Positions 3,406-64,000 of a DNA stretch of 64,000 nucleotides are shown piece by piece (the stretch's first letter is position 1; every line of letters starts with the position of its first letter). Both the position numbers and the translations under genes were made by a program. The notes under the pieces were generated by a model. The model was not told where the DNA came from, searched no databases, and saw only the letters and a list, made by a program, of their open reading frames with translations. The stretch lies in NCBI RefSeq assembly GCF_963921235.1, contig NC_086097.1:128590001-128654000 (forward strand). Direction: 5' to 3'. Source of the stretch: Mobula hypostoma. Its lineage: Eukaryota.

Positions 3406-5733
3406 GAAATCCTGTGGTAAGCAATTAATCGATAGCAGTTATACTTATTCCTGAATAAATAGCTCAATTTTACTCAATCAAGCTGAAAATATGAACTGAA
3501 GAAAATTGGCAACGGACACCAGTGCAAGTTACAACACACTTGCTTTTGGGATAATTTTTAATGGTGCACAAAAATATATATATAAATTGAAAGCAAAAGA
3601 AAAATGAGAATTACTCCAATGTGATGAAAGAACTTAACTCAGAAATACTGCTTGAATATAAATTTGACTTTGCGCAAGAATATTAGTAAGCCTTTGACTG
3701 CGAATGTTAATTGGAAATACAATGGGCACTCGATATCATTTGGTATCAGTGATCAAAAATGGTTTTCTGTCCATTTGTAACTAGGTCAAAAATGAAATAG
3801 CTCAAGGAAGGGAAAACACTCAGGAAAGTATAAATGCAAGAATGTGAATTAACTAAGTACAGAATGCATGGAAGGGAGTTACTATCAGTTAAAGTGCTGC
3901 ACTTTCGTCTGAAGGAAGGTTGCAATGGGACAGATGTTACGTACGATCATATCCCTTTCTAGCAGATTAAGCAGACGTACTATTAGTCACAAGGTGTGCA
4001 AAGATCACATTACTGCAGGTGGCAATGAAGTAAGCTTTACAGGAATGCCACTCGAAAACCATGAGTGATGAAGAATCATTAATCAGATCAGTATTGTGGA
4101 GAAGTCTGAACCAACACCCTTTCCCATTTAGCATCGAATTCTCCATTCTTGTTATTAAACAGATATAAAGCATCAGCATGCACCTTCCTGCATCAATAAA
4201 CAGTCAGGGACTGAATAAAATAGAATTCATTGTCAGAACAGGTTCAATATAGATTCTTTGGTAATCCTTTAACAACTAGATCTGAATCATTTCCTTCCTA
4301 GCAAATGTAAAACTGGTTGTTTCTTTCTTACGTAATGTGTGTCCTTTGACTTTTGTCGTATAGATGTCTGCATGGGGGTAGAGGAAAGCACAGAGAGAGT
4401 GAGCAAAGAGTTCAGAAATGAGAGGAAGTTTGAGTATGAGGAACACTGTGATAAGAGAAAGGTTTAAAAAGATTTTATTTCCACAGCACCTTTTGTATCC
4501 TCTGGAGCCCAACAGCACTGTATTTGGAATCAATGGCTTTTCTTCAGACATAGATACTTTTGGAGTAGCTGACATCCCAGCTAGCTCACTTCTAACTTTC
4601 CCAAAGGCACTGAGATAATCTCTAAAATAATGTTAGGCTGAACTCTTTCAGCCCTTCACTGATCCCTGCTTTTGTTCTCTTTTCCCTTTCTCCTTCTCTC
4701 TGGACTTTTACATTTGTTCCAGCTTGAACTTTTCCCAGCTCTGAAAAAAAAAGTCAGGAAGTGAAGTGTTATCTGTGGTTCTCCATAGCTGTTGCTTCAC
4801 TAGCCGAGTCCCTCTGGCCATTGTCTGTTTTCATTTCAGACCTGAGGTATCTTCAGACCTTTGCTACCTCAAGAGCTCTTCGCTACTATAATGTTGCAGT
4901 ACAGAACCTGGCCTTTGCTTCTCTTCGTCAATGTATTGGACTGGCATTCACTATCTATGGGTAACATGATAGATTAACCTTATAAGCTTGTTCTGGATGA
5001 AAACCACCTTGCAAAATGTATCCTGTGGATGCTTCTCAATCTGCCAGGATAAGGACCGAAGTGTTGGCGGGGGGGGGGGGGCGCGGTGGTCTATGATTAC
5101 GGGAGAGCCAAGAATGCATGGGTGAGGTTAGAACCACATCTGGCATGACCTTACTAAATGGCAGCAGAAGCTCAGGGGCCGAGTGCACCCAGTCCTTCCG
5201 GGCATGAGAAATATGAGTCTCCTCCACCACTTGTTGCAAGGTTGACTGATTACATCCTAGCCTCATCTCCAATCTGCTCCCTGTTCTCGTTAACCTATTC
5301 CTCCTTGATTCCCCTGTCCATCTCAGCTCGAGGCATAATCAGTGATTCAGCCTGCACTGCTCTCGATGACAGGAGAAGTAATTCCTTTTTATTCCTATTG
5401 GACAACTCTCCAATGCCCTCCACAGCCAGTGCTAGGGGACTTGTAATGATTTTGCTGTTATGTGCAATGCCACCAGCCCCTTTCCACATGAGTCTACAGA
5501 CATTGTTGAAGGGAGTCATATGCTAAAATAAAGCTCCAATTTTTGTTAATGCACATAGAAAACAACCTATTGATCTGGATACATCACAGTTGATATGGCA
5601 ACAGCTCAGTCCAAGACCAGAAGAAACTTCAGAGTGCTGTGGATGCAGCTCAGAACATCACAGAAACCAGTCTCCCCTCCATGAGCTCATCTACACCTCA
5701 CTGCCTTGTGAAAACAGCCAACGTAATCAAAGA

Positions 5734-6947
5734 ATCTGCTCTCAGGATGAGGCTTTTCATTCTAGGACGAGGGAGATGTCTTCATTTTTTAAAGAAAGGG
5801 GCTTCCCTTCCTCCACTATCAACTCTGTTCTTAAACGCATCTCCCCCATTTCACGTACATCTGCTCTCACTCCATCCTCCCACCACCCCACTAGGAATAG
5901 GGTTCCCCTGGTCCTCACCTACCACCCCACCAGCCTCCGGGTCCAACATATTATTCTCCGTAACTTCCGCCACCTCCAACGGGATCCCACCACTAAGCAT
6001 ATCTTTCCCTCCCCGCCTCTCTCTGCATTCCGCAGGGATCGCTCCCTACACAACTCCCTTGTCCATTCGTCCCCCCCATCCCTCCCCACTGATCTCCCTG
6101 CTGGCACTTATCCGTGTAAGCGGAACAAGTGCTACACATGCCCTTACACTTCCTCCCTTACCACCATTCAGGGCCCCAAACAGTCCTTCCAGGTGAGGCA
6201 TCACTTCACCTGTGAGTCGACTGGGGTGATATACTGCGTCCGGTGCTCCCGATGTGGCCTTTTATATATTGGTGAGACCCGACGCAGACTGGGAGACCGC
6301 TTTGCTGAACATCTACGCTCTGTCCGCCAGAGAAAGCAGGATCTCCCAGTGGCCACACATTTTAATTCCACATCCCATTCCCATTCTGACATGTCTATCC
6401 ACGGCCTCCTCTACTGTAAAGATGAAGCCACACTCAGGTTGGAGGAACAACACCTTATATTCCGTCTGGGTAGCCTCCAACCTGATGGCATGAACATTGA
6501 CTTCTCTAACTTCCGCTAGGCCCCACCTCCCCCTCGTACCCCATCTGTTACTCTTTTTAATGCACACATTCTTTCTCTCACTCTCCTTTTTCTCCCTCTG
6601 TCCCTCTGAATATACCTCTTGCTCATCCTCTGGGTCACCCCCCCCCCCGGTCTTTCTTCCCGGACCTCCTGTCCCATGATCCTCTCGTATCCCCTTTTGC
6701 CTATCACCTGTCCAGCTCTCGGCTCCATCCCTCCCCTTCCTGTCTTCTCCTATCATTTTGCATCTCCCCCTCCCCCTCCAGCTTTCAAATCCCTTACTCA
6801 CTCTTCCTTCAGTTAGTCCTGACGAAGGGTCTCGGCCTGAAACGTCGACTGCGCCTCTTCCTATAGATGCTGCCTGGCCTGCTGTGTTCACCAGCAACTT
6901 TGATGTATGTTGCTTGAATTTCCAGCATCTGCAGAATTCCTGTTGTT
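5734..6947 (+). mobile_element. Penelope-like element (Neptune-type), 5'-truncated: RT C-terminus, CxxxxCxxC linker, GIY-YIG, 3' UTR with hammerhead
   Basis: RICS, PLVLTYHP, CKRNKCYTC, VIYCVRCSRCGLLYIGET, HLRS, VATHF, PDGMN; TSD AACGTAATCAAAGA at 5720-5733 and 6948-6961. Confidence 0.95.
6815..6850 (+). ncRNA. Minimal type I hammerhead ribozyme (PLE-associated)
   Basis: AGTC-CTGACGA-AGG(gtctcgg)CCT-GAAA-CG-TC-GACT: stem I AGTC/GACT, both core boxes, palindromic ACGT stem III, GUC cleavage triplet ending at 6846. Confidence 0.85.
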
Positions 6948-8110
6948 AACGTAATCAAAGACCCCACCCACCCCAGATATTTTCTCTTTTTCCCACCTTT
7001 CTTCAGATAATAATGCAAAATCCTGAAAGCATGTACCACTGGGCTCAAGAACAGCTTCAGTCCCAAGGATATAAGATTATTGAATGGACCTCTTACAATT
7101 AGATGGTCCCTGACCTCACAATCTACCTTGTCATGGCCTTGCACCTTATTTTCTACCTGCACTGCACTTTCTCTATAACTGCAAATATACTGTACATTCT
7201 TCATTATGGTATCATTACCATAATGCTATGTGTTTGCATTATGATGTACTGATATAATGAAATAATCTGTAAAGATTGCATGCAAAACAAAGATTTTCAC
7301 TGTACATATGACAACAATAAACTAATTAATGAACAATAAGTAAAAAGTATACCACATACACCCAGGGCATGACGTGTATGAAACTGTCTTGTGTTCAGCC
7401 AGAAACTGGCCACTTGGTTTCTCAAGCCTGCTGCACTTTGCAATAATATCTTGCTGCCTTGATTATAACATCCACTGTGCATTCCTGGCTGCCCTCAGTA
7501 ACCTTCTGTCTGGCTTTTGTTCTCATCCTGATGGATTGTGATGCATCCGGTGGATATACATGGCATGGTTGCTATCAGGTTAATTGTCACTTTTCTTTGC
7601 TGTCTGGTTCAGTAAGTTCCAAACCACTTGAAACCGAGATATAGATTCCTTGGGTGTTTTCTTTCAAACGCTCACGTGACGCCACTATGTGGCTGCTTAA
7701 TGGGTGTCTTACAGTGCTGTGGACAAAAAAAAAGAGTATTCAATAGTGCTGTCAGAATGCTAGTCCAGAATATTGATTTCTAACGTGTATTTGTTCAGTA
7801 CCCAGCTACTAAATAGACAGCCATCTCTTTTATGAAAATCTTGATGAAAGATGATGACAAAGGATTTATACTGAGACACTGTATGCATCAGGATCTTGAT
7901 GTATGGGAGCTTTTCAAAGTATAAACCCATTGACTGTCTATCAGCAAAATAAATGTTCATTTGGGATCTGGTGAGGTTCAGAAATGAAACCCAGTCCAGA
8001 CCTGACCTGACCTCATCCAATCCAAACCCAAACCGACTACAGTTAATCCAACACACATCAAAGTTGCTGGTGAACGCAGCAGGCCAAGCAGCATCTGTAG
8101 GAAGAGGTGC

Positions 8111-8146
8111 AGTCGACGTTTCAGGCCGAGACCCTTCGTCAGGACT
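8111..8146 (-). ncRNA. Minimal hammerhead ribozyme copy
   Basis: Reverse complement of the 6815-6850 motif. Confidence 0.83.
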
Positions 8147-8973
8147 AACTGAAGGAAGAGTGAGTAAGGGATTTGAAAGTTGGAGGGGGAGGGTGAGATC
8201 CAAAATGACAGGAGAAGACAGGAGGGGGAGGGATGGAGCCAAGAGCTGGACAGGTGATAGGCAAAAGGGGATACGAGAGGATCATGGGACAGGAGGTCCA
8301 GGAAGAAAGACAAGGGGGGGGGACCCAGAGGATGGGCAAGAGGTATATTCAGAGGGACAGAGGGAGAAAAAGGAGAGTGAGAGAAAGAAGGTGTGCATAA
8401 AAATGAGTAACAGATGGGGTACAAGGGGAAGGTGGGGCCTTAGCGGAAGTTAGAGAAATCGATGTTCATGCTATCAGGTTGGAGGGTACCCAGACGGAAT
8501 ATAAGGTGTTGTTCCTCCAACCAGTGGCCACACATTTTAATTCCACATCCCATTCCCATTCTGACATGTCTATCCACGGCCTCCTCTACTGTAAAGATGA
8601 AGCCACACTCAGGTTGGAGGAACAACACCTTATATTCCGTCTGGGTAGCCTCCAACCTGATGGCATGAACATCGACTTCTCTAACTTCCGCTAAGGCCCC
8701 ACCTCCCCCCCCGTACCCCATCTGTTACTCATTTTTATGCACACATTCTTTCTCTCACTCTCCTTTTTCTCCCTCTGTCCCTCTGAATATACCTCTTGCC
8801 CCCCCCCCGTCTTTCTTCCCGGACCTCCTGTCCCATGATCCTCTCTTATCCCCTTTTGCCTATCACCTGTCCAGCTCTTGGCTCCATCCCTCCCCCTCCT
8901 GTCTTCTCCTATCATTTTGGATCTCCCCCTCCCCTTCCAACTTTCAAATCCCTTACTCACTCTTCCTTCAGTT

Positions 8974-9009
8974 AGTCCTGACGAAGGGTCTCGGCCTGAA
9001 ACGTCGACT
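8974..9009 (+). ncRNA. Minimal hammerhead ribozyme copy
   Basis: AGTCCTGACGAAGGGTCTCGGCCTGAAACGTCGACT. Confidence 0.85.
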
Positions 9010-9269
9010 GCACCTCTTCCTACAGATGCTGCCTAGCCTGCTGCGTTCACCAGCAACTTTGTTGTGTGTTGCTTGAATTTCCAGCATCTGCAGAATTCCT
9101 GTTGTTTACAGTTAATCCAATCTGACCTGGCCCAAGCAAAAGTTTGTCAATTGTCAAAATTGTTTTTTTTTTCCTTTTTATGCCCCCACTTTAAATTCAT
9201 GGGTGTTAAAGCATCAGATGACCTATGGTGGGGCCCAGTACATAGATAGATCACATGGAAGATGTGCCA

Positions 9270-17880: not shown

Positions 17881-19340
17881 ACAGACAAGGGAAAATCCGC
17901 AAATACTGGAAATCCAAGCAACACACACTAAGCATCTGGAGGAACTTAGCATCTATGGACAAGAGTAAACAGCCGACATTTTGGGCCAACATTCTTCATC
18001 AGGACTGGAGAGAAAGATGTGAGAAGGTGGGTGGAGTGAAGGAAGAAAAACAAGGTGGTAGGTGATAGGTGAAACTGGGAGGGGGGGTGAAGTAAAGAGC
18101 TTAGAAGTTGATTTTTGAAAGAGATAAAGGGCTGGAGAAGGGAGAATTAGATAAGAGAGGACAGAAGGCCATGGAAGAAAGGGAAGGGGGGAAAGCACCA
18201 GAGGGAGGTGATGGGCAGGTAAGGAGATAAGATAAGAGAGGGAAAGGGGGATGGGAAATGATGAAGGAGGGGGGTCATTACTGGAAGATCAAGAAATTGA
18301 TGTTCATGCCATCAGGTTGGAGGCTACCCAGATGGAATATAAGGTGTTGCTCCTCCATCCTCAGTGTGGCCTCATCGTGACAGTAGAGGAGGCCATGAAC
18401 TGATATGTCGGAATGGGAATGGGAAGTGGAATTAAAATGGGGGGCCATTAGGAAATTCCGCTTTTTCTGGTGGATGGAGCGTAGGTACTCAGCGAAGCAG
18501 TCTCCCACTCTACGTCGGGTCTCAGCAATGTACAGGAGGCCACACTGGGAGCACCAGATACAGTAGATGACACCAACAGACTCACAAGTGAAGTGTTACC
18601 TCACCTGGAAGGACTGTTTGGGGCCCTGATGGTAGTGAGGGAGGAGGTGTAGGGGCAGTTGTAGCACTTACTCCACTTGCAAGGGTTGGTGCCAGGAGAG
18701 AGATCAGTGGGGAAGAATGAATGGACAAGGGAGCGATCCCCGTGGAAAGGAGAGAGTCGGGGTGGTGGGGGGGAGGGAAAGTTGTGCTTGGTGGTGGGAT
18801 CCCATTAGAGATGGCAGAAGTTATGGAGAATAATGCAGAGGCTGGTGGGGTGGTAGGTGAGGACAAGAGGAACCCTATACCTGGTGGGGTGGCAGGAGGA
18901 TGGGTGAGGGCAGATGTGAACGAAACGGAACAGATGCAGTTGAAGGCAGTGTTGGTGGTTCAGGAAGGGATGCCTCTTTCTTTGAAGAAGGAGAACATCT
19001 CCTTAGTTCTGGAATGAAAAGCCTCATCCTGACAGCAGATACAGCAGAGATGGAGGAATTGAGAGAAAGGAATGGCATTTTTATAAGGAACAGGATGGGA
19101 AGAGGTATAGTCCAGGTAGCCGTGAGAATCAGTGGGTTACAAAGGATATTAGGAAATAGACTGTTTCCAGAGATAGAGACAGAAAAATCAAGAAAGGGGA
19201 GGGAGGTGTCAGAAATGGACCAGGTAAATTTGAGGGCAGGGTGGAAGTTGGAGGTAAAGTTGATGAGATCTGCATGGGTGCAGGAAGCAGCACTAATGCA
19301 GTCATTGATGTAACGTAGGAAAAGTTGGGGAGTGATACTA
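17880..19340 (-). mobile_element. Older Penelope-like element, frameshifted
   Basis: ORF pieces FLRYINDC, NFHPALKFTWSISD, HFNSTSHSHSD, LQPDGMN; decayed hammerhead near 17970-18007. Confidence 0.9.
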
Positions 19341-19417
19341 GTATAGCCTTGGAGCAATGCAGTCTGACCAATGTCCTCCAAGCCCTCAGCAACACTGTGA
19401 AGTCCGATGCACCTTGA

Positions 19418-32449: not shown

Positions 32450-33155
32450 CATGAGAAAGTCTGCAGATGCTGGAAATTCAAAGCCACATATACAAAATGC
32501 TAGAGGAACTCAACAAGTCAGACAGCATCTATGGAAATGAATAAACAGTTGATGTTTCGGGGAGAGACCTTTCATCAGGACTGAAAAGGAAGGGAGAAGA
32601 TGCCAGAATAAGAATATGAGGGGAGGGGAAGGAAGACGGTGATAGGTGAAGTCAGGTGGGTAAGAAAGATAGAGTTGGAGAAGAAGGAATGTGATAGGAG
32701 CGAAAAGTGGACCATTGGAGAAAGGGAAGGTGGAGGGGACCTAGGTGATAGGCAAGTGAGAGGACGTAAGAGGCCAGAATGGGAAACAGAAAAAGAGGGA
32801 AGGGAGAGGAAATTTTTTTTTTGCCAGAAGGACAGATCGATATTCATGCCATCAGGTTGGAGGCTACACAGACGGAATATAAGGTGTTGCTTCTCCACCC
32901 GAGGCTGGGCTTTTCTTAGCACAATTTTCGAATAGGAAAGGGAATGGGGCGAAAAATGTTTAGCCACTGGGAAGTCCCTCTTTCGGCAGGTGGAGCAGAA
33001 GCAGTCCCTCAATTTATGACAGGGCTCACCAGGGTGGAGGAGGTCACACTGGGAGCACTGGACACAGTAGACAATTTCACAGGTGAAGTGTTGCCTCACC
33101 TGAAAGGTCTGTTTGAGGCCCTGAATGGAGGCGAGGGAGGAGGTGAATGGGCAGG
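32450..33155 (-). mobile_element. Older PLE 3' fragment (GIY-YIG and 3' UTR)
   Basis: IQGLKQTFQVRQHFTCE, VAKHF, LQPDGMNID; hammerhead remnant near 32547-32583. Confidence 0.88.
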
Positions 33156-33244
33156 TTGGAAAGATAGGGCACCCAAAGGAAACCCATGCTGTGACAGGGT
33201 AGATGCACAAACTCCACATGAACAAGACACAAGGTCAGGACTAA

Positions 33245-51344: not shown

Positions 51345-52450
51345 TAAACACAAGAGATCCTGCAGATTCTGGAAATCCAAAGCAACACACACAAAATGCT
51401 AGAGAGACTCAGCAGGTCAGGCCTGAATGGAAATGAATAAACATTTGATATTGTGGGCTGAAATCTTTCATCGAAATTGGAAGGGAAGGGAAAAGATGCC
51501 AAAATAAAAAGGGGGGGGGGAGGGTGAGCAGAACAAGCTAGGTTAGCCTCTACATCCAACACATTATCTTCTGCATTTCTAACATCTCCAAAGGCATCTT
51601 ACCACTGAACATAACTTTACCTCCCCCTCCCCGCTTTCCACAGGAATCACTCCCTCCATGATTTGGTTGTCCATTTGTTCCTCGTCACTAATCTCCCTCC
51701 TGACACTTATCCTTGCAAACGGCCTAAGTGCTACACCTGCCCATTCACCTCCTCTCTCACCTCCATTTAGGGCACCAAACAGTCCTTCCAGGTGAGACAA
51801 CACTTCACCTGTGAATCAGCTAGGGTGGTCTATGAGTTCCTGATGCAGCCTCTTTTACATTGGTGAGACGCCTCATAAATTGGGTGACCGCTTCTCTGAG
51901 TACCTCCGCTCCCTCTACCAAATGTGTAACTTCCCAGTGGCCAAACATTTTAAGTCCAATTCCCATTCCCGGTCTGACATGTCAGTCCATGACCTCCTCT
52001 TGTGCCAAGATGAGGCTATCCTCAAGGTAGAGAAGCAATATCTTATATTCCAATATTCCATCTGGGTAGCCTCCAACCTGATAGCATGAATATCAATTTC
52101 TTCTTCCAGTAAAAATTATTCCCTCATCTCCCCTCTTCTATTCACCATTCTGGCCTTTTACCTCTTTTCACCTGCCTATCACTTGCCCCTCGGACCCCTC
52201 CTCCTTCACTTTCTCCTGTGGTCCACTCTCCTCTTCTACCAGATTCTTTCTTCTCCTGCCCTTCACCTTCCCCACACACTTTGCTTCGCCTATCACCTCC
52301 TAGCTAGCCTCCTGCCCCTCCCCCCACCATTTTATCCTGGTGTCTTTCCCCCTTACTTTTCAGTCCCGAAGAAGGGTCTTGACCCAAAATGTCGACTATT
52401 TATTCATTTCCATACATGCTGCCTGAACTGCTGAGTTCCTTTCATGTGTG
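51345..52450. mobile_element. Older PLE: inverted 3' fragment (minus, about 51345-51545) joined to a plus-strand GIY-YIG and 3' part
   Basis: GDRFSEYLRS, VAKHFKS; PLE tails face outward at both ends; another minus-strand tail at about 51045-51230. Confidence 0.8.
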
Positions 52451-59325: not shown

Positions 59326-59721
59326 GAAAAATGAGTTTAAAGGAAAGCATTTAAGAATTGAAAATGAACTTCCCTCTCAATGTCAATATCAATGAAGTTA
59401 CTAGTCTAACCTCATGCATATTCAGTGGGAAGGTTACCAATGTAATTGGTGATGAAGATGGAACTGGGGTTTCATGCAAGCAAAGGAAATTTATCACCCC
59501 CTGGTGTGTATGACAATAAACTATTCTGAATCTGGATCCACAAGAAAGCTGCTATCAATGCATGGAATTACTAAAAGTTCTCAAAAAAATCAAGCCAAGT
59601 GAATTAAAAATTGAATTGAATTGAAACAACAGGAATTCTCCAGATGCTGGAAATTCAAGCAACATACATCAAAGTTGCTGGTGAACGCAGCAGGCCAAGT
59701 AGCATCTATAGGAAGAGGCGC

Positions 59722-59757
59722 AGTTGACGTTTCAGGCCGAGACCCTTCGTCAGGACT
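59722..59757 (-). ncRNA. Minimal hammerhead ribozyme copy (stem I variant, AACT instead of GACT)
   Basis: Core boxes CTGACGA and GAAA and the GTC triplet are intact. Confidence 0.75.
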
Positions 59758-60052
59758 AACTGAAGGAAGAGTGAGTAAGGGATTTGAAAGCTGGAGGGGG
59801 AGGGGGAGATGCAAAATGATAGGAGAAGACAGGAGAGGGAGGGATAGAGCCGAGAGCTGGACAGGTGATAGGCAAAAGGGGATACGAGAGGATCATGGGA
59901 CAGGAGGTCCGGGAAGAAAGACAAGGGGGGGGGGTGACCCAGAGGATGGGCAAGAGGTATATTCAGAGGGACAGAGGGAGAAAAAAGAGAGTGAGAGAAA
60001 GAATATGTGCATAAAAATGAGTAACAGATGGGGTACGAGGGGGAGGTGGGGC

Positions 60053-61355
60053 CTAGCGGAAGTTAGAGAAGTCGATGTTCATGCCATCAGGTTGGAGGCT
60101 ACCCAGACGGAATATAAGGTGTTGTTCCTCCAACCTGAGTGTGGCTTCATCTTTACAGTAGAGGAGGCCGTGGATAGACATGTCAGAATGGGAATGGGAT
60201 GTGGAATTAAAATGTGTGGCCACTGGGAGATCCTGCTTTCTCTGGCGGATAGAGCGTAGATGTTCAGCAAAGCGGTCTCCCAGTCTGCGTCGGGTCTCAC
60301 CAATATATAAAAGGCCACATCGGGAGCACCGGACGCAGTATATCACCCCAGTCGACTCACAGGTGAAGTGATGCCTCACCTGGAAGGACTGTTTGGGGCC
60401 CTGAATGGTGGTAAGGGAGGAAGTGTAAGGGCATGTGTAGCACTTGTTCCGCTTACACGGATAAGTGCCAGGAGGGAGATCAGTGGGGAGGGATGGTGGG
60501 GACGAATGGACAAGGGAGTTGTGTAGGGAGCGATCCCTGTGGAATGCAGAGAGAAGGGGGGAGGGAAAGATGTGCTTAGTGGTGGGATCCCGTTGGAGGT
60601 GGCGGAAGTTACGGAGAATAATATGTTGGACCCGGAGGCTGGTGGGGTGGTAGGTGAGGACCAGGGGAACCCTATTCCTAGTGGGGTGGTGGGAGGATGG
60701 AGTGAGAGCAGATGTACGTGAAATGGGGGAGATGCGTTTAAGAGCAGAGTTGATAGTGGAGGAAGGGAAGCCCCTTTCTTTAAAAAAGGAAGACATCTCC
60801 CTCATCCTAGAATGAAAAGCCTCATCCTGAGAGCAGATGCGGCGGAGACGGAGGAATTGCGAGAAGGGGATGGCGTTTTTGCAAGAGACAGGGTGAGAAG
60901 AGGAATAGTCCAGATAGCTGTGAGAGTCAGTAGGCTTATAGTAGACATCAGTGGATAAGCTGTCTCCAGAGACAGAGACAGAAAGATCTAGAAAGGGGAG
61001 GGAGGTGTCGGAAATGGACCAGGTAAACTTGAGGGCAGGGTGAAAGTTAATAAAGTCAAAGAGTTCTGCATGCGTGCAGGAAGCAGCGCCAATGCAGTCG
61101 TCAATGTAGCAAAGGAAAAGTGGGGTACAGATACCAGAATAGGCACGGAACATAGATTGTTCCACAAACCCAAAACAAAGGCAGGCATAGCTAGGACCCA
61201 TACGGGTGCCCATAGCTACACCTTGAGTTTGGAGGAAATGGGAGGAGCAAAAGGAGAAATTATTAAGAGTAAGGACTAATTCCGCTAGACGGAGCAGAGT
61301 GGTGGTAGAGGGGAACTGATTAGGTCTGTAATCCAAAAAGAAGCGTAGAGCTTTG
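60053..61355 (-). pseudogene. 5'-truncated PLE ORF (RT C-terminal half plus GIY-YIG), open
   Basis: GVAMGT, YIDD, FLDL, KPTD, RICS, CKRNKCYTC, IYC…YIGET; lacks the N-terminal RT motifs and a true ATG start. Confidence 0.9.
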
Positions 61356-62642
61356 AGACCTAATCAGTTCCCCTCTACCACCACTCTGCTCCGTCCAGCG
61401 GAATTAGTCCTTACTCTTAATAATTTCTCCTTTTGCTCCTCCCATTTCCTCCAGACTAAAGGTGTAGCTATGGGCACCCGTATGGGTCCTAGCTATGCCT
61501 GCCTTTGTTTTGGGTTTGTGGAACAATCTATGTTCCGTGCCTATTCTGGTATCTGTCCCCCACTTTTCCTTCGCTACATCGACGACTGCATTGGCGCTGC
61601 TTCCTTCACGCATGCAGAACTCGTTGACTTTATTAACTTTGCCTCCAACTTTCACCCTGCCCTCAAGTTTACCTGGTCCATTTCCGACACCTCCCTCCCC
61701 TTTCTAGATCTTTCTGTCTCTGTCTCTGGAGACAGCTTAACCACTGATGTCTACTATAAGCCTACTGACTCTCACAGCTATCTGGACTATTCCTCTTCTC
61801 ACCCTGTCTCTTGCAAAAACGCCATCCCCTTCTTGCAATTCCTCCGTCTCCGCCGCATCTGCTCTCAGGATGAGGCTTTTCATTCTAGGACGAGGGAGAT
61901 GTCTTCCTTTTTTAAAGAAAGGGGCTTCCCTTCCTCCACTATCAACTCTGCTCTTAAACGCATCTCCCCCATTTCACGTACATCTGCTCTCACTCCATCC
62001 TCCCACCACCCCACTAGGAATAGGGTTCCCCTGGTCCTCACCTACCACCCCACCAGCCTCCGGGTCCAACATATTATTCTCCGTAACTTCCGCCACCTCC
62101 AACGGGATCCCACCACTAAGCACATCTTTCCCTCCCCCCCTCTCTCTGCATTCCGCAGGGATCGCTCCCTACACAACTCCCTTGTCCATTCGTCCCCCCC
62201 ATCCCTCCCCACTGATCTCCCTCCTGGCACTTATCTGTGTAAGCGGAACAAGTGCTACACATGCCCTTACACTTCCTCCCTTACCACCATTCAGGGCCCC
62301 AAACAGTCCTTCCAGGTGAGGCATCACTTCACCTGTGAGTCAACTGGGGTGATATACTGCGTCCGGTGCTCCCGATGTGGCCTTTTATATATTGGTGAGA
62401 CCCGACGCAGACTGGGAGACCGCTTTGCTGAACATCTACGCTCTGTCCGCCAGAGAAAGCAGGATCTCCCAGTGGCCACACATTTTAATTCCACATCCCA
62501 TTCCCATTCTGACATGTCTATCCACGGCCTCCTCTACTGTAAAGATGAAGCCACACTCAGGTTGGAGGAACAACACCTTATATTCCGTCTGGGTAGCCTC
62601 CAACCTGATGGCATGAACATCGACTTCTCTAACTTCCGCTAG
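61356..62642 (+). pseudogene. 5'-truncated PLE ORF (RT C-terminal half plus GIY-YIG), open
   Basis: Mirror of the minus arm: QTKGVAMG, RYIDD, GIY-YIG motifs. Confidence 0.9.
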
Positions 62643-62935
62643 GCCCCACCTCCCCCTCGTACCCCATCTGTTACTCATTTTTATGCACACATTCTTTCTC
62701 TCACTCTCCTTTTTCTCCCTCTGTCCCTCTGAATATACCTCTTGCCCATCCTCTGGGTCACCCCCCCCCTGTCTTTCTTCCCGGACCTCCTGTCCCATGA
62801 TCCTCTCGTATCCCCTTTTGCCTATCACCTGTCCAGCTCTCGGCTCTATCCCTCCCCCTCCTGTCTTCTCCTATCATTTTGCATCTCGCCCTCCCCCTCC
62901 TGCTTTCAAATCCCTTACTCACTCTTTCTTCAGTT

Positions 62936-62971
62936 AGTCCTGACGAAGGGTCTCGGCCTGAAACGTCGACT
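62936..62971 (+). ncRNA. Minimal hammerhead ribozyme copy
   Basis: AGTCCTGACGAAGGGTCTCGGCCTGAAACGTCGACT. Confidence 0.85.
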
Positions 62972-63020
62972 GCACCTCTTCCTATAGATGCTGCTTGGCC
63001 TGCTGCGTTCACCAGCAACT

Positions 63021-63660
63021 TTGAATTGAATTGACTTTATTTCTTACGTCCCTCACATGCATGAGGAGTAAAAATATCTACGTTACGTCTCCCTCTGAAT
63101 GTGCAATGTGCAAATTATGGTAATTTGTAATAAATAGTATATACGGTAAGATAAACAACAGATCAGTCAATATCGCTTAGAAATACGATTGTGTTGGCAT
63201 GAATTAATCAGTCTGATGGCCTGGTGGAAGAAATTATCCTGGAGCCTGTTGGTCCTGGCTATTATGCTGCAGTACTGTTTCCCGGGATGGTAGCAGCTGG
63301 AAAAGTTTGTGGTTGGGGTGACACGGGCCCCAGTGATCCTTCGGGCTCTTTTTACGCACCTGTTGCTGTAAATGTCCTGAATAGTGGGAAGTTCACAGAA
63401 GCGCTGGGCTGGCCACACTACTCCTGCAATTGAGGGAAGTACAGTTCCCATACAACCAGTCAGGATGCTCTTAATTGTGCCCCTGTAGAAAGTCCTTAAG
63501 ATTTGGGGACTTATGCCGAACTTTAACCAGCTGAGGTGAAAGAGGCACGGTGTGCTTTTTCTCGCCACACAGCCGGTACGTACAGACCAAGTGAGGTCCT
63601 CAGTGATGTGTATAATGAGGAACTTAAAGTTGTTCATCCTCTCAACCCCAGATCCATTGG
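63021..63660 (-). mobile_element. Rex1/Babar 3' end with (TTCAA)n tail, the target of the PLE palindrome
   Basis: NNFKFL, TFYRGTIKSILTGC, NFFHQAIRL; AATAAAGTCAATTCAATTCAA tail on the minus strand. Confidence 0.85.
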
Positions 63661-64000
63661 TGTGCTTTTCACTTCTTGATTTGTTGACGGAGAATGCTCT
63701 TTAATGATATTGACCAGTTTGACATTCCAGCTGTCAGACGCTAAGGATGCCTGAGAGTGACAGCCATCAGGACAAGAAAAATCCTCTTGGATATCATAGA
63801 GTATAATTCAGAGCTTTCTTTGAGGTCAGCGGGGAGTGGCATTACTTTGCAAATTACACGCAAATATCATTTGCAACCAACAGGTAATTTGTTTAATTCT
63901 GCACCCTAAAAACAAGACAAAGATTAAAATAGTCATGAAGAATAAAATCAAGTTGTCCATCACTACACTGAGCTAAACTTACCCTCAGGGAAACTATGTT

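Follow-up and report, generated by a model that had tools for sequence, protein, structure and literature searches.

The window analysed here, a 64,000-nt stretch of contig NC_086097.1 of Mobula hypostoma, carries at 59611..63034 a Penelope-like element (PLE) that is present twice, as two long arms placed head-to-head within one target site duplication (TSD), and the question raised by this locus is how one insertion could have delivered both arms. The original prediction was that the first-strand complementary DNA (cDNA) folded back, primed itself and was copied almost to its start before joining the target. In this study, we report the structure of the locus together with a census of its family, and argue with moderate confidence that the insertion was made by two-ended target-primed reverse transcription, the cDNAs being joined directly, and not by fold-back of a single cDNA. 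Taken by itself, the locus is nothing out of the ordinary for the very large PLE family to which it belongs, and its layout has already been published.

Structure of the insertion and its origin in one event

The element is an endonuclease-containing (EN+) PLE with just one open reading frame (ORF), in which a reverse transcriptase (RT) is followed by a C-terminal GIY-YIG endonuclease. The frame is open over 1043 aa in copies L193, L164 and L118, and Pfam searches returned RVT_1 at 534-697 (E=3e-5) and GIY-YIG at 946-1020 (E=0.001), neither of which reached the Pfam cut-off. A pseudo-long terminal repeat (pLTR) layout of partial tandems, a partial copy plus a 3512-nt monomer with the pLTR overlapping the start of the ORF, was seen in L193 and others, and an optional tail of 30-40 nt, encoding the ORF N-terminus, occurs at one end in this family. 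A putative hammerhead-like core (CTGACGA..GAAA, which we take to be a hammerhead core pattern) lies 129 nt from the 3' end; no hammerhead match was returned by the Rfam search. The translations contain PADKGG, with DKG before the RT, and CKRNKCYTC..EH..HF, whose Cys and His residues around the endonuclease were matched against what is presumably the exact CCHH spacing. Both the DKG and CCHH motifs are named in passages of PMC8557442, and passages of PMC4209133 describe pLTR hammerheads, some of them as pairs on opposite strands.

The insertion is a palindrome of 3.4 kb, in which two 5'-truncated PLE arms lie head-to-head within one 14-nt TSD, TTGAATTGAATTGA, found at 59611-59624 and again at 63021-63034. 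The left TSD copy belongs to the AATTG-repeat tail of an older host repeat, and the first 4 nt of the right copy (TTGA) match the element too. The left arm (59625..61361, minus strand) extends to about nt 1745, counted from the 3' end of the family, and bears the PLE tail; the 44 nt found in this arm only (59625..59668, minus strand) comprise the tail plus a few nucleotides and encode the ORF N-terminus in full copies. The right arm (61356..63024, plus strand) starts 1711 nt from the 3' end, at a truncation hot spot, and has a tail-less end, which lies 44 nt before the full 3' end, or 48 nt if TTGA is assigned to the target. Alignment of the arms (61327 to 59669 on the minus strand against 61356 to 63024 on the plus strand) gave 26 substitutions in 1657 aligned nt, a divergence of 1.6%, together with a 12-nt deletion in the left arm (between 61048 and 61049) and one 2-nt indel. 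Each arm keeps an open frame of about 436 codons with the GIY-YIG domain at its end, which is the final part of the 1043-aa ORF (60053..61361, minus strand, and 61356..62642, plus strand), and the motif scan placed a candidate hammerhead-like core in the pLTR of each (59730..59753, minus strand, and 62940..62963, plus strand). A TG>GT swap at 61174..61176 (minus strand) has its right-arm counterpart at 61507-61509, and these two are its only occurrences in the genome. At the centre, AGGTCT (61322..61327, plus strand) is one half of a 6-nt inverted microhomology whose other half, AGACCT (61356..61361, plus strand), is common to both arms; the 28-nt spacer between them (61328..61355, minus strand) is element sequence of the left arm only.

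Coordinates and alignment thus bear out the original prediction of a 3.4-kb PLE palindrome with a 28-nt centre, a left arm with the complete 3' end and a right arm about 45 nt short that joins the target through TTGA microhomology. Its view that the left arm is also the longer at the 5' end stands, with the figure corrected from 28 to 34 nt (28 plus 6 shared), and the duplicated coding sequence comprises the end of the RT and the endonuclease, the last ~436 of 1043 codons, and not the whole RT.

The locus is the result of one event. Contigs of a related organism (organism B) run from the left flank through a single TTGAATTGAATTGA into the right flank, CTTTATTTC, which is the empty site; this evidence comes from two runs of one sample. 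The single 14-mer there agrees with the earlier claim of one insertion with a true TSD. The left junction into the element is spanned by one contig of organism A, from a run that is possibly the assembly's own source; runs of organism C gave no coverage of the insertion point. A perfect AATTG tail of 5-20 nt was found in 30/30 other copies of the host repeat, and such tails could therefore not have provided the 14 nt at both flanks. The arms are concordant at 36 of the 38 polymorphic family sites in a sample of 216 copies, as expected of one subfamily; the two-site conflict that had suggested different subfamilies, in a first sample of 30 copies selected for their similarity to the right arm, was no longer seen in the larger one. 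Divergence from the column majority is about 1% for either arm, against 0.9% for the family median, and the junction of the arms at the centre has one match in the genome, without recurrence elsewhere.

The tail rule in the family

The census was drawn from 80 of the first 100 tail matches listed and 92 of the first 100 long-copy matches listed (of the other eight long-copy matches, 3 were already in the set and 5 lay in pairs or at this locus), to which 29 close relatives (L002-L030) were added. It holds 89 distinct simple head-to-head events, after three-piece events and pairs with ends outside the fetched DNA had been set aside. A TSD was found in 83/89; its length was 12-19 nt, with a mode of 14, in the 81 events whose ends were measured, eight having been dropped (5 with no TSD, 1 with both arms tailed and 2 with a poor end match).

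One tailed arm was joined to one tail-less arm in 88 of the 89 events, while the remaining event had two tails and none had two tail-less arms; among events from loci not chosen by the tail motif, the proportion was 42/42. The tail-less arm reached further 5' in 48 of the 88, the tailed arm in 26, and the two were equal within 5 nt in 14. For events with an arm longer than 200 nt (for 8 of which the ends were inspected visually), the corresponding counts were 29, 16 and 1. Because a fold-back copy cannot hold 3' sequence that is missing from its template, the 48 events with the longer tail-less arm need a second priming, and fold-back as the general route of the family is thereby refuted.

Tail-less ends fell at 29-44 nt in 75/81 events, with this locus at 44, so that the short end of the right arm is the family's tail-less end; it matches the second RT start site described by Frangieh et al. 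2024. A TSD-like repeat was also found around 14/28 tail-less solo copies, by a loose search that may include false positives. The target shares microhomology with the element at both ends (means of 1.4 and 1.9 nt), and the T-rich bias downstream of both nicks is alike, with T at +3 in 53/81 and 48/81. Three further events (L174:1585-3758, L065:200-2330 and L041:192-3452) consist of three pieces; every one of them is enclosed by a single TSD and has a tail at one end but not at the other. The inverted piece carries sequence upstream of the other arm and starts within 2, 69 and 31 nt of that arm's stop, a layout for which two cDNAs on one template are needed. Rare variants, compared in 29 events with at least 300 nt of overlap after removal of duplicates, were common to both arms at 16/16,955 nt and 13/12,292 nt in two length classes, versus 12/620,189 nt in random pairs; this is about 50 times the sharing of random pairs, to which conversion after insertion could contribute. 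From the tail census, the shared variants, the end microhomology and the three-piece events, we infer that both target nicks would serve as primers on one RNA.

Two pairs of insertions each share one inversion junction. L138:4141-7610 and L139:253-3725 have different TSDs and carry the tail on opposite arms, and L039:200-3884 and L054:199-3821 likewise share a junction; the insertions are separate, being 70 kb and 1.4 Mb apart. Such sharing would fit a palindrome that was already in place and was copied again, or else ectopic gene conversion. Short inverted pieces at 5' ends, resembling true limited fold-back, were observed at L112:266-2326 and L004:377-425.

Proposed two-ended priming and its alternatives

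In the reaction that we propose, the endonuclease of the element would nick both target strands 14 nt apart. The 3' end of the top strand would prime a cDNA at the tail start site, giving the left arm, and that of the bottom strand, pairing through TTGA, would prime another at the tail-less start site, giving the right arm, both being templated by RNA of one source. The second cDNA would halt some 1711 nt in, where the truncation hot spot lies, and the first at or beyond 1745 nt, after which the cDNA 3' ends, AGGTCT and AGACCT, could anneal and be filled in by host repair. For the family at large, a dimer that primes both nicks at two adjacent start sites of one RNA would probably account for the strict pairing of one tailed with one tail-less arm, with palindromes re-copied and the tail switching arms as in L138/L139.

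Known systems lie close to this scheme. EN+ PLEs next to which a 5'-truncated copy lies in inverted orientation, with a single TSD and a tail of 30-40 nt on one side only, appear in the Fig. 2 legend of PMC8557442 and, as Pen2a/Pen2, in passages of PMC3846280; the former passages call the route by which PLEs form inverted repeats undefined, and the latter describe inverted pLTRs in one TSD and propose self-priming on an antisense template. The present family agrees with canonical EN+ PLEs in the head-to-head arrangement, single TSD, tail at one end, RT followed by the GIY-YIG part of the ORF, pLTR with a putative hammerhead-like core and palindromes at pLTR-size junctions. It differs in nothing of kind, the arms here being long and near-equal as in six other sampled events; the tail that those passages place 'often' at one end is here, by count, a near-absolute rule, and it may stand on either arm. 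According to passages of PMC11167929, the Poseidon PLE PAc of Anolis cleaves and extends both strands of an AT-rich target in vitro, with two RT start sites bounding a tail, which is the stretch between them inside the ORF start, and a dimer is predicted; our family resembles PAc in its tail, its AT-rich target and the proposed cleavage and extension of both strands.

In LINE-1 twin priming, cDNA synthesis on a single RNA starts from either end of the target, which gives one TSD and a head-to-head microhomology junction; the second of these primings takes place internally, and there is no overlap between the arms. The priming from both target ends is the same here, and the three-piece events resemble the LINE-1 case, whereas both primings here lie at the 3' end, ~32-44 nt apart, and the whole shared length is duplicated. 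Passages of 10.1101/2024.12.14.628481 cover LINE-1 self-annealing as well as twin priming. The inverted duplications associated with LINE-1 there show a small hairpin and priming of the duplication by short microhomology, as the original prediction envisaged, but differ in that flanking genomic DNA is duplicated, without a fixed second end. Our literature search, which did not reach older subscription papers, brought up neither a two-ended priming model nor a one-tail rule for PLEs.

The centre of the locus is where the choice is least clear, since annealing of two cDNA ends and fold-back yield an identical junction sequence. The sequence AGGTCTCAAAGCT stands upstream of KALRFF in 25/27 other copies compared there (one of the others reads ATGGTCT.. 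and one AGGGCT.., while L016 is truncated there); because these copies carry the same reading, AGGTCT/AGACCT is native element sequence, as had been predicted along with its complementarity. Of 47 other 5' ends that lie between 1640 and 2100, 8 coincide with the right-arm start at 1711 (they fall at 1707-1715), several of them solo copies, and a hot spot shared with solo copies therefore favours a real cDNA end. Rfam at the centre returned only plant and animal microRNA models, below gathering scores, because of the hairpin. The junction walk scores 30/47 large junctions as insertions, some of which are probably mismatches, and insertion lengths were not relied on.

Several observations weigh against direct joining of two cDNAs. 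On sequence alone, this locus fits fold-back equally, its tailed arm being the longer one. An overlap of 6 nt, expected in ~0.1% of random joins, is the longest among 47 large junctions, and the cDNA end is predicted to form exactly this hairpin at -4.7 kcal/mol. Overlaps of at least 5 nt are confined to near-equal pairs (2/10 vs 0/37, p=0.04), and near-equal arm lengths are themselves enriched (10/40 vs 3.7 by permutation, in a sample that mixes two selection schemes). The TG>GT swap is private to these arms, as a copied RT slip would be; two control variants from other events occur at 22 and 24 places, possibly through recurrent single mutations, and speak neither for nor against such a pattern. 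The 44-nt tail-less end lies at the outer limit of the main cluster, whose modes are 32 and 36, and a single contig, C1, supplied every sample other than L002-L030. Finally, Frangieh et al. 2024 (PMC11167929) observed no strand difference in the start site, and the main text, to the extent covered, neither addresses inverted copies nor ties them to two-strand extension.

A contribution of fold-back at this centre, suggested by the 6-nt microhomology, the 28-nt loop and the variant private to both arms, is possible. The strongest alternative combines both processes: the left cDNA would fold on AGGTCT/AGACCT, extend in the sense direction and anneal to a second cDNA primed from the other nick at the tail-less site. 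The longest centre microhomology, short loop and favourable predicted hairpin speak for it, as does the swap, ~150 nt from the centre and in these arms only; the family also contains short pieces that resemble fold-back (L112, L004), and the opposite tails of L138/L139 suggest that a second cDNA can anneal to a sense strand. We nevertheless regard it as rather unlikely, since the right arm starts at a truncation hot spot that is independent of it and to which solo copies also belong, near-equal pairs are not enriched for shared rare variants, and 30/40 events with both arms longer than 200 nt differ by more than 110 nt, and by up to 5 kb, which is long for a hairpin loop.

Fold-back alone, in which one self-primed cDNA is copied almost to its start and joined via TTGA, is improbable even at this locus. 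Every local feature fits it, the copied arm lying wholly inside the template arm, and self-priming is proposed for PLE junction palindromes in passages of PMC3846280. The same nesting fails in 48/88 family events, which are unattainable by this route, and neither the absence of tail-less/tail-less pairs (0/42) nor a stop at the tail-less start site is predicted by it; the right end falls in the tail-less cluster, at its edge, in a position shared with solo copies. The original prediction is supported in part: a single source for both arms and a native microhomology hold, but its reading of the structure as a signature of simple cDNA fold-back is not supported. More doubtful still is a symmetric or hairpin intermediate, formed first by self-priming on antisense RNA, from which the endonuclease trims one tail at resolution; RT starts map in vitro to both tail boundaries, priming agrees with the target microhomology seen at tail-less ends and with the solo copies that lack a tail, and two cDNAs are needed for the three-piece events. 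Two independent insertions into the AATTG repeat, or an assembly chimera with chance AATTG similarity, may be dismissed as next to impossible: in their favour, the target is a simple repeat and the arms differ by 1.6%, but the empty site has one 14-mer, host tails never attain the at least 28 nt required, both arms share a unique variant, their divergence is in line with family age, and a chimera would yield identical arms, so that a chimeric read is unlikely given their substitutions and indels.

Abundance of the family and implications for the genome

Two-ended priming, if it operates, does so in an abundant family. The tail motif has 32,961 exact matches in the genome, and a motif lying 1.6 kb upstream has 2,694. 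Inverted pairs hold 45/80 tailed ends and 27/92 long copies sampled; four close head-to-head pairs, this locus included, were among the first 100 long-copy matches listed, and both arms exceed 1.6 kb in six other sampled events (L102, L123, L129, L160, L186 and L191). The structure is thus not unusual, contrary to what had first been supposed. Uninterrupted frames of 1041-1043 aa are present in copies L193:4082-7210, L164, L118 and L180, and the arms of inverted pairs L171, L186 and L191 are only 0.1-0.2% apart; the family has therefore been active recently. Hot spots of 5' truncation lie at 1707-1715 and at ~126-142 nt from the 3' end, the latter being the pLTR start beside the hammerhead-like core, from which many palindromes of pLTR size result (42/89 events).

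Further repeats were identified in the window. A second head-to-head event of the same family, at 8038-9120, has a 14-nt TSD, TACAGTTAATCCAA, and arms 3.4% diverged, the tail-less one extending 507 nt and the tailed one 598 nt from the 3' end. A solo tailed copy of 1.2 kb at 5720-6961 has the 14-nt TSD AACGTAATCAAAGA, and remnants of older, related PLEs, which share 69-80% identity with the arm, lie at 18283-19346, 32454-33156 and 51555-52101. The host repeat at 63021-63700, whose AATTG tail was the insertion target and whose end motif has 2484 matches, presumably resembles a LINE 3' end; a Pfam search of its frame gave no match.

The structure is known and common, the proposed two-ended priming rule is testable, and it is the family census, rather than the locus, that matters: the formation of inverted repeats by PLEs becomes directly testable in the existing in vitro system. 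If true, priming of two nicks by a dimer would account in one step for inverted pLTRs and a one-sided tail, which have long lacked an explanation. Judging from the 45/80 sampled tails, long inverted repeats that number in the thousands probably arise from this family across the genome, and effects of these on double-stranded RNA and on assembly are to be expected.

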